IMG/VR virus record: IMGVR_UViG_3300021399_000014
Coordinates: 2,566 to 66,565 of that record
Origin: a virus
Taxonomy: Duplodnaviria > Caudoviricetes
Length of the DNA: 64,000 nucleotides
Strand: one strand, 5' to 3'
The stretch's first letter is position 1, and each line of letters starts with the position of its first letter. The notes under the pieces were generated by a model. The model worked only from the letters and a program-made list of their open reading frames with translations. It was not told the origin of the DNA and did no database searches. Made by a program: the position numbers and the translations under genes. This document shows positions 9,371 to 31,757 of this stretch, piece after piece.

Positions 9371-10233
9371 AACTTAAAGACATTTTCACGCCTAAAGTAC
9401 TGAGCGGATTGGCAGTAGTTGGCGTAGTAGGAACAGCGGTATTGGCGGCTATGGAAGGAATGGCGTCCAAGGAAAAGATCCAGAAGATTAAGGAAGAGAT
9501 GCCCGAGGAGAAGAAAGAGAGTAAGCTGGCAGTATCCTCTTATTATGCTCCTCGTGTGGCCGGATGCTTCTGGAAGACGATCGTAGTAGGCGGAGTAACA
9601 ATTACTTGCATAGTCGCATCATGCTATCTTAGTGGACTTCAGCTTGCCGCTATGGCCGGTACAGTATCTTATCTTGTATCACAGAGGACAGCAATCGAGA
9701 AGGAGGTAAGTAAAATTCCGGGAGGCAAGGAGGCCCTGGATAAAGCTAAGAAGGAAGTAGCCAAGCTTACTGCCGAGAAGAAGATCGACGAAGCAGAAAA
9801 GAAGAAATCGCCATGGCTTATACAAACGATCGAAGAGACCGGCGAGGGAGAAGACATATTCATAGACGAATGGTCCGGGCGAGTCTTCAGATCGAGTCCT
9901 GAGGCGGTCAAAAAAGCCTGGGACAGTATAAACGCCAGAAGAGACGAGGGATTAGATCTTCCCTTTAGTGATGACGGCGACATGAATATTCCAGAAGCCA
10001 TACCCTATAATGATATTTTCATAGCGCTGAATCTCGAACCAAGCGGCATAGGCCATCAGTTTGGATACCCGGCAAATGATGATCTTTACAGCCATAGAGA
10101 AATCCCCTATGAGATTCAACGGCTTGAGTTCGACGACATGGACGAAAGTCAGAAAAAGAGATATGGCGAAGGAATCTATGTAGTACATATTCCGTCCGAC
10201 TACTATCCTATGGAGTGCTGGGCTGAATACTGA
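9367..10233 (+). CDS. DUF6353-like membrane-anchored protein, paralogue 1
   Basis: PKVLSGLAVVGVVGTAVLA N-terminal helix, second hydrophobic segment, soluble C-domain; family name from recall. Confidence 0.6.
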   Translation: MKLKDIFTPKVLSGLAVVGVVGTAVLAAMEGMASKEKIQKIKEEMPEEKKESKLAVSSYYAPRVAGCFWKTIVVGGVTITCIVASCYLSGLQLAAMAGTVSYLVSQRTAIEKEVSKIPGGKEALDKAKKEVAKLTAEKKIDEAEKKKSPWLIQTIEETGEGEDIFIDEWSGRVFRSSPEAVKKAWDSINARRDEGLDLPFSDDGDMNIPEAIPYNDIFIALNLEPSGIGHQFGYPANDDLYSHREIPYEIQRLEFDDMDESQKKRYGEGIYVVHIPSDYYPMECWAEY

Positions 10234-26604: not shown

Positions 26605-27157
26605 CCATCGCCGTCTTAAGGGACAGCATGCGTTGTTCAGTCCATCGAATCCGTCATGGATTAGATATGACGCAGACAAAGTTCGATCATATTTGCAATC
26701 TATTGAAGCTAGAGCTCTTGGTACTAGACTTCATGACTACGCTTGTCAAAGCATCGAACTAGGACGAAAACTTCCGAGCAGACCGGCGGACACAATATCC
26801 CTTTATGTGAACGATGCCATCAAACTCGGAATGACACCAGAGCAATGCTTATATTATTCGCAGTATTGCTATGGTCACGCAGATGCTATTAAATTCGATC
26901 GTGGCACGATCAGAATACATGATCTTAAAACCGGCTCGCTTCCTGGCAAAATGGATCAGCTATTGATCTATGACGCTCTGTTCTGTCTCGAATATGGATA
27001 CGATCCGCATAGCATCAAGCACAATCTCAGGATTTATCAGTATGACGACATTAACGAAGTCACGCCGCATCCTGATGATATTGCAGAGTATATGGATCAG
27101 ATTATCAAGGTAGACGAGATCAAAACTGGCGCAATGGGGGAAGCGAATTATGAGTGA
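26579..27157 (+). CDS. Cas4-like / DUF2800-type PD-(D/E)xK exonuclease
   Basis: HALFSPS...GTRLHD...GHADAI...IHDLKTG...QLLIY motifs. Confidence 0.7.
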   Translation: MSSSILWNDHRRLKGQHALFSPSNPSWIRYDADKVRSYLQSIEARALGTRLHDYACQSIELGRKLPSRPADTISLYVNDAIKLGMTPEQCLYYSQYCYGHADAIKFDRGTIRIHDLKTGSLPGKMDQLLIYDALFCLEYGYDPHSIKHNLRIYQYDDINEVTPHPDDIAEYMDQIIKVDEIKTGAMGEANYE

Positions 27158-29957
27158 ATTATATTCTATATGGGAAGGCGAGTTCCTATCACATGAGGGT
27201 AAAGCTCATGACGAGAACCCTCCTGGACGAGGTTCTGGTAGATATGGCTGGGGTACTGGTGAACGAAAGTACCAGCATCTTCCTTGGGCGACCAAGGCTG
27301 GTATGGAAATAAAGCAGCTTCAAGCTGAAGGTCTAAAGATGAAGCAAATCGCAGCTGCTCTCGGGACGAGTCAGGCTAATCTGCGAAGGTGCTTAAGCAT
27401 AGACAAAGAGGCTCGCGACATTCGCGACAGGAACGAGCTCATCAGACTCAGGGATATCGAAGGCGTTACGTCTATGCGAGAAATGTCCAGGCGCACAGGC
27501 ATTCCTCTCACTACCGTGGGCAATCTCTTGAGAGAAAACACCCAGGCTAAGATAGAACGTAATGCTAAGTATATGGAGATTCTGCGTAAGCAGATTGAAG
27601 AGAAAGGGCATATCGACGTCGGAGCTGGGACTGAACATAACTTAGGCGTTAGCTCCACAAAGATGAACCAGCTGGTTAAGTCCCTTGCTGAAGAAGGCTA
27701 TGTACTGTCTCATCCTAAAGTGCCGCAGGCCGGAACCAGCTATGATACAAATATGCTCGTTCTGTCCAAGAAAGGTACGCCGAAGAATTATATTTATAAC
27801 CACATAGAAGATATTAAGACATTAGACGATCTTCATGTGGTGGACGACGGTAACGGTCCAAAAGAAGCTAAGTTCCATGATCCTAAGAGTATTGACTCAT
27901 CGAGAGTAGCTGTTAAATACAATGAGGAAGGCGGACTCGCTAAAGATGGACTAATTCAGTTAAGGCGTGGAGTTCCTGAACTTAATCTCGGCAACAGCAA
28001 CTATGCGCAGGTTCGTATTGCCGTTGACGGTACACATTACATTAAGGGAATGGCCGTCTATGGTGACGACGAAGACTTCCCGAATGGTGTCGACGTTCTC
28101 TTTAACACCAATAAGAAACTCGGCACTCCCATGATGGGCGCTAAAGACAACACTGTGTTCAAGCCGATCAAAGGTGAAGGACTTCAGGCATTTGGCGCTA
28201 CAATCAGAGACCAGAACGACTGGACTGATGAGAACGGTAAACACCATGAGGGTCTCGTAAACATTGTTAAAGAGCAGGGTGTATGGCATGAGCAGCAAAG
28301 AACGCTTGCCTCACAATTCTTGGCTAAGCAATCACATCAGCTGGCCAAGAAACAGCTTGACCTTGCTTACGCCGATAAAGAGAACGAGTTCAAGGAAATT
28401 CAGGCACTTGACAATCCCGTTGTTAAACAGCGCATGCTCCGGTCTTTCGCTGAAGAATGCGACGCTGCTGCTGTACATCTCAAAGCTGCGGCAATTCCGA
28501 GACAGTCATGGAACGTTATTATTCCAATGACCACTCTTAAAGATAACGAAATCTATGCTCCCGCCTATAAAGATGGCGAAGAGGTGGTCTGCATTCGTTA
28601 TCCTCACGGCGGTAAATTTGAACTTGTACAGCTTAAGGTCAATAACCGTAACAAAGAGGGCAAGAAAGTACTGGGTTCGGACGCCTTTGACGCCGTAGGC
28701 ATAGGCAAATCGTCTGCTGACAAGCTCTCTGGTGCTGACTTTGATGGCGATACAGTTCTTGTTATACCTAACCCTAAGAAGCCCACTAAAAATGGGAAAT
28801 ACAAGTATGAGATTTCTGTTAGAGACTCGCTCGAAGGACTCAAAGACTTTGATCCTAAGATAACTTATGGTGGCGTAGCTGAAAAAGACAGGATGACGAG
28901 CAAAAACACTCAGCGCCAGATGGGCATCATATCTAATCTTATTAGTGATATGACGATCCTTGGGGCCGATGATGATGAACTTGCCAGAGCAGTAAGACAT
29001 AGCATGGTCGTTATCGACGCTGAGAAGCACGGGCTTGATTACAAGCGGTCGTATAAAGACAACAAGATCGCTGAGCTCAAGAAGAAGTACCAAGGCGGCG
29101 GAGGCGTAGCGACACTTCTGTCTAGAGCCAAGAACCCCAGGTACGTGCCTGCCCGAGTCACCAACAACCCCTATGATATCGATGAAGAGACTGGCGAACG
29201 CATCTGGAATAACCAGAAAGAACGTAAGTACATCGATAAGGACGGGGTAGAGCGTACTATCAAGCCCCGCAACATCAAGACGTACTGGATGGATACTGTA
29301 TCTGATGCTCGAGAATTAATCTCCGATCGGAACACGGTAATAGAGAACGTTTACGCTAACTTTGCTAATGAGTGTAAGGCTTTGGCTAATCGTGCGCGCA
29401 AAGAACTCGTTCGTTCTAGTAAAGAGGAGCACCTTGAATACAGCAAGGAAGCAGCCAAGACCTATGCAAAAGAAGTAGAGGAGCTTAATCGCAAGCTTTT
29501 GACCGCACAGAAGAACGCGCCCAGAGAGAGGGCGGCGCAAAGATTAGCCAACCTCAGGGTAAAGGATGCGGTAGAGAATGCAAAGCTGAACGGAACCGAG
29601 CTGACTGATAGCGAGGTACGTAAGCTCCTTGCTAAACAGATTGAACCTGCCCGCAGAGAGGTGGGAGCTAAGAAAGAGCGGGTCAAGTTCACCGAACGTG
29701 AGTGGGAAGCAGTGCAGAAGGGGGCTATTCATCAGACCACCCTGGCCAAGCTTCTAAGCAATGCGGATGAGAAGAACTATAAGACCCTGGCTACCCCTAG
29801 AGACCAGCGTGGGCTGTCACAGTACAAGATCAACCGGATAAAGGGTATGCTAGAGGCCGGGGTAGATACCCGTACCATGCAGTGGATAGCCGACTACATG
29901 GGAGTGTCCCTGTCAACTATTGCTGCAGTCAAGTCTGGTAAATACGACAAGAAGTAA
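27150..29957 (+). CDS. Single-subunit two-barrel RNA polymerase (YonO / RdRP-like) with fused HTH domains
   Basis: RYPH (28596-28607), catalytic LSGADFDGD (28731-28751), GIISNLI and VIDAEK motifs; two N-terminal and one C-terminal HTH-like segments. Confidence 0.8.
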   Translation: MSELYSIWEGEFLSHEGKAHDENPPGRGSGRYGWGTGERKYQHLPWATKAGMEIKQLQAEGLKMKQIAAALGTSQANLRRCLSIDKEARDIRDRNELIRLRDIEGVTSMREMSRRTGIPLTTVGNLLRENTQAKIERNAKYMEILRKQIEEKGHIDVGAGTEHNLGVSSTKMNQLVKSLAEEGYVLSHPKVPQAGTSYDTNMLVLSKKGTPKNYIYNHIEDIKTLDDLHVVDDGNGPKEAKFHDPKSIDSSRVAVKYNEEGGLAKDGLIQLRRGVPELNLGNSNYAQVRIAVDGTHYIKGMAVYGDDEDFPNGVDVLFNTNKKLGTPMMGAKDNTVFKPIKGEGLQAFGATIRDQNDWTDENGKHHEGLVNIVKEQGVWHEQQRTLASQFLAKQSHQLAKKQLDLAYADKENEFKEIQALDNPVVKQRMLRSFAEECDAAAVHLKAAAIPRQSWNVIIPMTTLKDNEIYAPAYKDGEEVVCIRYPHGGKFELVQLKVNNRNKEGKKVLGSDAFDAVGIGKSSADKLSGADFDGDTVLVIPNPKKPTKNGKYKYEISVRDSLEGLKDFDPKITYGGVAEKDRMTSKNTQRQMGIISNLISDMTILGADDDELARAVRHSMVVIDAEKHGLDYKRSYKDNKIAELKKKYQGGGGVATLLSRAKNPRYVPARVTNNPYDIDEETGERIWNNQKERKYIDKDGVERTIKPRNIKTYWMDTVSDARELISDRNTVIENVYANFANECKALANRARKELVRSSKEEHLEYSKEAAKTYAKEVEELNRKLLTAQKNAPRERAAQRLANLRVKDAVENAKLNGTELTDSEVRKLLAKQIEPARREVGAKKERVKFTEREWEAVQKGAIHQTTLAKLLSNADEKNYKTLATPRDQRGLSQYKINRIKGMLEAGVDTRTMQWIADYMGVSLSTIAAVKSGKYDKK

Positions 29958-30249: not shown

Positions 30250-30830
30250 CTTGACCTCCTCCTTTAATACAAGACATAGTGTGATTATTATAGCTTTGTA
30301 TGCACTTGCTTTTACACATCTGTATGCAAAGCTATTGATTCACACTATAACGATCTTAACGTGTCTTTACAACACCATACTCACTGCACAAACCTTATTG
30401 TTATGCATACAGTTGCTTAAAGATATAGAATCAAACAAATTAATTTAGTTTCTTTTAGTATTTTAGTTATTAACAAACAGAATAAAAAGTATTTGACTTT
30501 GTTTTAATCTATTCAAAACAAAACTTTTTAACTAATTTAAACTATTTGTTTAATGTTTTTAAGTATTTTTGTTATATTGAATGGATTTTGTTTGTTTTTA
30601 ATCTCATTTAAAGGCAGAAATAGGTATAAACATGCTTAAAAACGAAGAAATTAAAAGATTTTCAATCAAAAATCCTTTTGCAGGCTTCAAAAAGCATACA
30701 AAACGCTCACCACTCTGGTCTATTTCGACAAAAAGAGGGTAGAGGGGGGTCCAAAAAATGCACACCCCCACCCATATCGCGCCCATCTTTATTTTTCCCC
30801 CGGAGGATTATATTTTCAAAACTTTCTAGT
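30250..30830. other. Non-coding AT-rich / G-C tract region, candidate genome end (cos/pac)
   Basis: No credible gene; very AT-rich 30420-30660; GGGTAGAGGGGGGT...CACCCCCACCC symmetry; lies just upstream of the terS/HNH/terL operon. Confidence 0.4.
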
Positions 30831-30991
30831 CCCGCTTTCTGCGCCCCGTAAGCCAAGGACGGCATTTTTTCTAAGTCGCTACTGCTTAGGGTAAGTGTCT
30901 GTCTCCTTTCTGCCGTTCATAGTACCTCCTAATTTACTATAAAAGTCTATCGGGACGCAGAAAGAGGTATTAGAAAAGAAAGGAAAGTCTA

Positions 30992-31342
30992 ATGAAAAGC
31001 AAAGAATCTCCTCCGATTTCTTCTAGAAAGTCTCGTGGAAGAGCGAGGTCGCCTGAAGAACGGGAGGCTCAGTTAATTTCTTTGGCTATGGACCGTGTCG
31101 AAGAGCGTATGATGAACGGTACTGCGTCTTCACAAGAGTATGTACACTTCCTCAGAGCGGCTTCAACCAAAGAAAGATACGAAACTGAAAAGGTAGCACT
31201 AGAACTGGAACTCGTTAAGGCTAAAACAGAGAATCTGCGCCTGCAACAGAAGAACGAAGAGCTATATGCTAATGCTCTTAAGGCGTTCAAACGCTATACA
31301 GGAGCGGACGACGAGGACGAAGACGATGAGGACCTATACTGA
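30992..31342 (+). CDS. Probable terminase small subunit
   Basis: First gene of the packaging operon; helical, EEREAQLISLAMD...ASSQEYVHFLR; position-based call. Confidence 0.5.
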   Translation: MKSKESPPISSRKSRGRARSPEEREAQLISLAMDRVEERMMNGTASSQEYVHFLRAASTKERYETEKVALELELVKAKTENLRLQQKNEELYANALKAFKRYTGADDEDEDDEDLY

Positions 31343-31757
31343 TCTGCTCAAAATCTCTTCGTTTGAAGAGCGTCTAAAATATCTGATGCTTTACGGTAAA
31401 GTTGGTCATGATACATTTGGCTATGACCGGTATCTTAACCAGTACCTATATCAGCGATCAGAAGACTGGAAACGAATTCGTAAATACGTTATTAATCGTG
31501 ATAACGCTTGTGACTTGGCGCATCCAGATTACGAAATTCATCCTGACGGCAGAAGATACATTATATTAGTTCATCACATGAACCCAATTACCAAAGAGGA
31601 TCTTCTGAACCGCTCTGACATTGTGCTTGACCCAGAGTTCCTAATTACAACAACTAGAGACACACACAACATTATTCACTATGGCTTCACCAAGTCCAAA
31701 CGTCCGACACTGATTGAACGGACGCCTAACGATACTTGCCCTTGGAGAAAGAGGTAA
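31326..31757 (+). CDS. HNH endonuclease (packaging-associated)
   Basis: WKRIRKYVINRDNACD...VHHMNP...THNIIHYG. Confidence 0.8.
   Translation: MRTYTDLLKISSFEERLKYLMLYGKVGHDTFGYDRYLNQYLYQRSEDWKRIRKYVINRDNACDLAHPDYEIHPDGRRYIILVHHMNPITKEDLLNRSDIVLDPEFLITTTRDTHNIIHYGFTKSKRPTLIERTPNDTCPWRKR

Follow-up and report, generated by a model that had tools for sequence, protein, structure and literature searches.

The gap between the cohesive-end site (cos) and the first late gene of this phage holds a long hairpin that very probably is a conserved leader RNA of the + strand, working through pyrimidine tracts complementary to Shine-Dalgarno (SD) sequences (anti-SD tracts). If this is true, a phage RNA shows the ribosome's own docking sequence as bait. 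The leader has no Rfam family: at gathering and E-value thresholds Rfam 15 gave none for the window and 16 relatives, and the best matches below threshold were unrelated hairpins. Conserved in well over 100 sequences, it would be a widespread structured RNA in a large group of phages and prophages from the gut, with Clostridia, Faecalibacterium, and Lactococcus as hosts, and the cultured phages FP_oengus and 1706 both carry the hairpin.

Position and fold of the hairpin next to cos

The window analyzed (a stretch of 64,000 nt from a 66.5-kb phage record) has all its genes on one strand. The gap with the hairpin separates the upstream RNA polymerase module, with the gene for a single-chain two-barrel RNA polymerase (27150-29957; phrog_4291), from the downstream packaging module. 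The first gene after cos (30992-31342, + strand; phrog_4259) encodes a protein of 116 amino acids. Next to it lies the HNH endonuclease gene of the cos packaging module (31266-31757, + strand; phrog_4321, E = 7e-49), and the large terminase gene is found further downstream in the same module.

An earlier note, made from the letters of the window, had proposed that a structured + strand element heads the late (packaging and structural) operon, and the proposal is supported by the fold, the covariation and the strand signal. Reading the sequence of the window confirmed the reported positions of the stems, of the inner hairpin and of the two pyrimidine tracts. The + strand from 30815 to 30995 was found to fold with a minimum free energy (MFE) of -53.6 kcal/mol (z = -3.5 relative to dinucleotide shuffles). 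The long closing stem, P1, pairs its 5' arm (30823-30848, + strand) with its 3' arm (30951-30976, + strand). The long stem of the earlier note is real and has 23 pairs, while one position that had been taken as paired is a C.A mismatch.

Within P1, stem P2 (30857-30918, + strand; 30857-30864 pairs with 30911-30918) encloses the small inner hairpin at 30871-30889 and the single-stranded tract 1 (30901-30911, + strand) with the core CTCCTTTC. Tract 1 lies in an internal loop of the MFE fold and has an unpaired probability of 0.87. The P2 topology recurs in relatives, where the main motif is typically located at the 3' side of the loop, directly before the closing strand. The hairpin P4 (30919-30940, + strand), which is kept in the closest clade, carries tract 2 (30922-30931, core ACCTCCT) unpaired in its 10-nt loop. 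The ribosome-binding site (RBS) AGAAAGGA and the start codon of the first late gene follow at 30977-30994 (+ strand).

The cos context was absent from the earlier account. The hairpin starts 36 nt to the right of the mature left end of the genome, and both ends could be placed from related sequences. The 116-aa protein led us to 161 related loci, of which 57 lie on contigs that stop 100-300 nt ahead of the homologous gene. Eighteen contigs begin on the identical base, 10 nt to the left of a near-palindrome. In three loci, adapter remnants of Illumina libraries (L044 1-15, L046 1-33, and L099 1-13) are fused to this same first base; in these IMG/VR contigs they are assembly artefacts, but they prove a physical DNA end. 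In five linear relatives, rated as 98-100% complete, the polymerase gene and the gene for the 116-aa protein lie at opposite ends.

In the window the first mature base is 30787, and the left-end signature (30787-30814) continues with an A/T run, a 10-bp near-palindrome at 30797-30806 and ATTATATT at 30807-30814. The same signature was found in Streptomyces and Arthrobacter phages with curated ends and in Lactococcus phages. The right-end flank of cos (30744-30777, + strand) consists of a conserved hairpin motif of a G-run and a C-run, followed by 4 nt, which places the mature right end at 30777; the right ends of three complete, linear genomes (G002-G004) terminate just past the motif. When considered as repeated promoters, the G-run motif and the near-palindrome were each found only once in the window.

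Between the two ends lies the 9-nt cohesive-end overhang cosN, CGCGCCCAT (30778-30786). The read-through contig G005, L003 and FP_oengus contain these nine bases, but both ends of G002-G004 lack them, which fits a 3' overhang removed in end repair. From this pattern we infer that the overhang of this phage probably protrudes at the 3' side. This agrees with the 3' overhangs of 9-10 nt measured in Lactococcus phage 1706 and related phages (PMC4110766). With cos of the phage family now placed to the base, the genome ends of many metagenomic phage contigs become easier to annotate.

In cos phages of Firmicutes and Actinobacteria, the phrog_4259 gene is conserved as the first to third from the left end, beside the HNH endonuclease gene, and it has 551 confirmed relatives in IMG/VR alone. 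The protein may be an unrecognized small terminase or a cos accessory protein. Its AlphaFold model consists only of a basic tail, a helix and a 57-residue helix, and speaks neither for nor against a role as small terminase; a profile of the protein gave no hit among PDB sequences. To the left of cos, positions 30449-30700 form an AT-rich stretch of 250 nt with an extended -10-like word near 30571-30579; a 36-codon open reading frame lies at 30632-30742. The AT-rich stretch is absent from relatives such as L002.

Conservation and strand of the structure

The core CTCCTTTC was found on the + strand, at most 220 nt upstream of the gene for the 116-aa protein, in 114 of 149 unique loci, compared to 36 loci for its reverse complement. 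It lies 64-205 nt (mostly 75-140 nt) to the right of the near-palindrome. A hairpin of 22-64 pairs (median 42) encloses it in 100 of the 114 loci. The tracts were also predicted to be exposed: in relatives the core motif had an unpaired probability of 0.74 and all tracts together one of 0.62, compared to 0.33-0.40 for the background. The earlier note had named burial of the tracts in cis pairing and lack of conservation in relatives as findings that would count against the element; as the tracts are conserved, and predicted to be exposed in the window and in relatives, it passes on both points.

The stem was analyzed in a MAFFT alignment of 55 hairpins, which gave a consensus stem of 27 pairs, the homologue of P1. 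Compensatory changes were found at all 27 pairs. Paired bases filled 88% of the alignment cells compared to 66% in shuffles, and the covariation score was 0.657 compared to 0.286 in shuffles (none of 500 reached 0.657) and to 0.10-0.18 when the partners were slid. The consensus stem of 27 bp is often extended further in relatives; its counterpart in the window has 23 bp.

A covariance model built from the hairpin alignment, termed R1, defines the phage leader hairpin family. It gave one hit per genome, at the position between cos and the first gene. The window was hit at 30830-30969 with 28.9 bits (E = 0.009), its sequence being part of the seed, while FP_oengus and L002, which are members from outside the seed, were hit at the same place with 35.6 and 38.4 bits. 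A scan for tRNA and tmRNA in the window found none, and blastn of the region against phage records gave no match.

Several observations assign the structure to the + strand. The fold z-scores across relatives were -5.3 for the + strand and -4.0 for the minus strand. The + strand fold was more stable by a mean of 11.7 kcal/mol, and was the more stable one in 93 loci compared to 20. Long-range G.U pairs numbered 621 on the + strand and 207 on the other. In a strand-neutral alignment, 175 cells were G.U and 58 were A.C, with 42 sequences favoring the former and six the latter. Mutational skew does not explain the G.U excess, since the + strand has more A than T genome-wide and the hairpin stems have more T than A. 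That G.U pairs are about three times as common as A.C on the + strand, contrary to the skew of the genome, therefore points to an RNA structure on the gene strand, and the strand specificity argues that the hairpin is neither a minus-strand gene nor merely a DNA site. The small clade to which the window belongs has shorter stems and no excess of G.U pairs, so the strand call depends on the wider family.

A short minus-strand gene was the alternative offered in the earlier note. The 13-codon open reading frame does exist, and it has an ATG and, as its own RBS, a perfect SD-like word on the minus strand of the window. The gene reading was rejected, since it is not conserved: just 42 of 114 relatives have an SD and a start codon there, the reading frames vary between 2 and 30 codons in differing frames with no conservation of the peptide, and L007 lacks a start codon. 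Together with the selection of the structure on the + strand, this leaves the minus-strand gene with practically no credibility.

More can be said for a packaging element that acts as DNA, comparable to cosB of lambda and bound by the small terminase or an accessory protein. The hairpin occupies the same place as cosB and the Nu1 leader, at about 200 nt from the left end and between the cohesive-end nick and the first packaging gene (left end 30787 and gene start 30992 in the window). The tracts form direct repeats spaced by two to three helical turns, and what looks like covariation could also come from inverted binding sites co-evolving with a protein. However, cosB works as duplex DNA, with R sites for terminase and a site for IHF, whereas pairing here is RNA-like and specific to one strand; a 3:1 ratio of G.U over A.C on one strand is unexpected for duplex DNA sites. 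Nor is the hairpin present wherever the packaging module is, as it is missing from phages that share the left-end signature, the HNH gene and the first gene. As a packaging signal it was rejected on its absence from the Streptomyces phages Rima and Scap1 and the Arthrobacter phage Circum, all with the cos signature; these actinophage relatives indicate that packaging does not need the hairpin. The near-palindrome with its A/T element, at a fixed distance of 10 nt from the end, is a better candidate for the terminase site. Taken as a whole, a DNA-level role is improbable. A packaging RNA like the pRNA of phi29 was also considered and rejected, with nothing but the left-end location in its favor.

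Anti-SD tracts and their possible targets

The core of tract 1, CTCCTTTC, is identical to the last bases of the 3' tail of 16S rRNA, and tract 2 to its CCUCC part. Apical domains carry one to four tracts, and two to four were found in 52 of 100 hairpins. Unpaired pyrimidine motifs complementary to the SD, as seen in small RNAs that target SD sequences, are thus a feature of the element. Judged from the predicted folds, these unpaired copies of the sequence with which the ribosome docks onto mRNA suggest that the element probably acts by pairing with ribosome-binding sites.

The function that we favor, tentatively and from sequence and predicted structure, is competition in cis at the first late RBS combined with cutting of the stem by RNase III. 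The long covarying stem would raise an apical domain that displays single-stranded tracts. Since the tracts mimic the docking sequence of the ribosome they can pair with any SD site, and by pairing with the unusually strong RBS of the first late gene on the same molecule they would compete with 30S subunits and lower the translation of that gene. The long perfect duplex would be a natural substrate for RNase III, and a cut would remove the competitor and fix the 5' end of the late mRNA. Be it by gating the first late gene, by timing late translation or by a broader competition with ribosomes, the element offers a concrete and cheaply testable handle on the late switch of these phages.

The arrangement is consistent with such competition, as tract 1 lies upstream on the same strand and matches the RBS of the next gene over 8 bp in the window. 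Pairing between the RBS of the first gene and a tract is possible in every locus, with a mean of -13.5 kcal/mol. The SDs of the first genes are in the top 10% of all genes (-13.1 compared to -10.15 kcal/mol, p = 1.5e-12). The first genes of operons generally have strong SDs anyway, and in the clade of the window the first-gene SD is merely average (-10.3 kcal/mol). The stem also has the length of an RNase III substrate (about two turns of near-perfect double-stranded RNA), with 23 pairs in the window and 27 in the consensus.

The flank of each tract was compared to the RBS of its own locus and to those of other loci, and the duplex energies were the same (permutation p = 0.46). Absence of covariation within the locus is expected of a mimic of the 16S tail, but it gives cis pairing no specific support. 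Also against cis competition, the hairpin stands anywhere from 16 to about 110 nt ahead of the start codon, and about half of the hairpins have two or more tracts, which is more than a single cis target requires.

The earlier note had put forward a different function, in which a late RNA pairs with many early RBSs in trans and shuts translation off. In its present form, the apical domain, perhaps released by RNase III, would accumulate late in infection and silence early mRNAs of the phage or mRNAs of the host via their SDs. The RBS sites that had been listed were all found in the window. The RBS words complementary to the tracts occur in 7-10 copies each, compared to about 0.3 expected; on the + strand the 10-mer complement of tract 1 occurs nine times (chance 0.26) and the 9-mer complement of tract 2 five times (chance 0.31). 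In each of the six complete genomes analyzed (the window and G001-G005), the full RBS word GAAAGGAG clusters in the early half; the window has 26 copies in positions 1-30000 compared to four in 31000-55000. The tracts are exposed and invariant in phages of different hosts, more than half of the hairpins have several of them, as do small RNAs that target SD sequences, and the position of the hairpin is unchanged when the first gene differs, as in phage 1706, whose left end has a hairpin with three tracts followed by another first gene.

The extended matches of 10-11 nt to the early RBS classes, on which the earlier note had relied, are peculiar to the window and reduce to the generic 8-nt SD core in relatives. 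G001-G003, which share the tract of the window, had no excess of the matching RBS flank, and no covariation was found between the tract flank and the RBS flank genome-wide. Selectivity for early genes proved weak, as late genes also have strong SDs: the SDs of early genes exceed those of late genes only slightly in strength (-10.35 compared to -9.84 kcal/mol, p = 0.008). GGAGG is carried by 32-53% of the late genes, so a trans-acting RNA would hit late genes of the phage itself. A bare anti-SD of 8 nt must also compete with tens of thousands of ribosomes bearing the same sequence. No terminator-like site was found after the hairpin, and no + strand promoter of the sigma-70 type in the gap from 30449 to the hairpin, that would make a discrete RNA; it is possible that the RNA is instead released by processing. 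With weak early selectivity, a match specific to the window, and neither promoter nor terminator found, competition in cis is preferred over action in trans. Trans shut-off is a possible function that gained no specific support from the relatives, and we regard it as rather unlikely.

A further use of the tracts may be considered in which the hairpin, excised from an abundant late transcript, is a free mimic of the 16S rRNA 3' tail. As a sponge it could retune which mRNAs get ribosomes late in infection, and as a decoy it could soak up a host factor or a defence nuclease aimed at the anti-SD tail of the ribosome. Toxins of the MazF type that remove the anti-SD exist (PMC12274833). The sponge or decoy is an unlikely reading.

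The tracts may also not be read as anti-SD sequences at all. The hairpin could be an operon-start RNA mainly for processing, stability, attenuation or antitermination of the long late transcript, with tracts recognized by a protein or by Rho; the roles that can be named are an RNase III site, a protective hairpin at the 5' end, a loading site for Rho and an RNA that modifies the polymerase. The long duplex, the conserved sequence, the fixed G.U columns and a conserved bulge suggest recognition by a protein, and the hairpin is placed at the start of an operon of more than 30 kb whatever gene comes first. Such roles leave unexplained, however, why 114 of 149 loci hold an exact copy of the 16S tail and why the hairpin is absent from actinophage relatives, whose hosts are presumed to rely less on the SD; there is no U-tract after the stem either. 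An operon-start RNA of this kind has a low probability.

Transcription context and comparison to known systems

The leader was compared to known systems, and it is related in kind to anti-SD leaders, to RNAs that target the SD and to hairpins cut by RNase III. In riboswitch platforms, RNA thermometers, and leaders of the ermC type, an upstream pyrimidine tract on the same mRNA can likewise occlude the RBS. Unlike the phage hairpin, their anti-SD and SD form a local hairpin by default; as the anti-SD of the phage is unpaired at the tip of the hairpin and the SD lies outside, pairing would need a contact resembling a pseudoknot. The C-rich loops of Firmicutes RNAs, such as RsaE/RoxS and the hairpins of S. 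aureus RNAIII, resemble the element in having several unpaired pyrimidine motifs complementary to the SD. These RNAs are separate genes with their own promoter and terminator, have motifs of the UCCC type and gain specificity by extended pairing, whereas the phage hairpin lies within an operon leader, has a stem of at least 27 bp and copies the 16S tail itself.

The RNase III hairpins of the T7 R sites and the lambda N leader share the long duplex at an operon junction, and in the lambda N leader RNase III cleavage relieves a translational block. They differ in lacking conserved loops like the 16S tail, and cleavage of the phage hairpin is a prediction. RegB of T4 is a functional analogue of the trans reading, as it silences early mRNAs via the SD, but it is a protein nuclease that cuts GGAG and not an RNA.

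We also analyzed where transcription of the late operon may start. The early promoter word has 17 copies on the + strand (up to two mismatches), 16 of them before 17.4 kb, and none was found in the intergenic gap 30449-30991. ATTATATT occurs 51 times in the window, always on the + strand, and one of the copies is that directly after the near-palindrome. There, at 30807-30832, ATTATATT is followed by a degenerate early promoter word, TTACA-N5-TATAATAG, possibly a weak or late promoter variant. With a degenerate promoter after ATTATATT, the late transcript may start near the hairpin. Alternatively, it may read through cos from upstream once the genome circularizes; the late transcript of lambda crosses cos.

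In SPbeta, late-operon transcription by the polymerase YonO begins ahead of an unannotated non-coding RNA (PMC5467207). The two phages thus share a single-chain two-barrel RNA polymerase and a non-coding leader at the start of an operon, and that the late operon of SPbeta, with its related polymerase, also begins with a non-coding RNA (PMC5467207) speaks for the operon-start reading. They differ in that the SPbeta leader is 1.7 kb long and has no match to R1, and in that the candidate promoters of the window's polymerase are in the early region. As a source of a shared motif, the late-promoter region of SPbeta was rejected, since the published primers for primer extension place the start elsewhere and no usable similarity was found. 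The SPbeta leader of 1.68 kb (L172 9154-10834, minus strand; the gap between yonN and yonK) was seen to have 11 CU tracts resembling anti-SD sequences, compared to 2.8 expected from shuffles and six on the other strand. It also contains a hit to the DUF3800-VIII RNA (RF03075, 47.5 bits) at 9410-9475.
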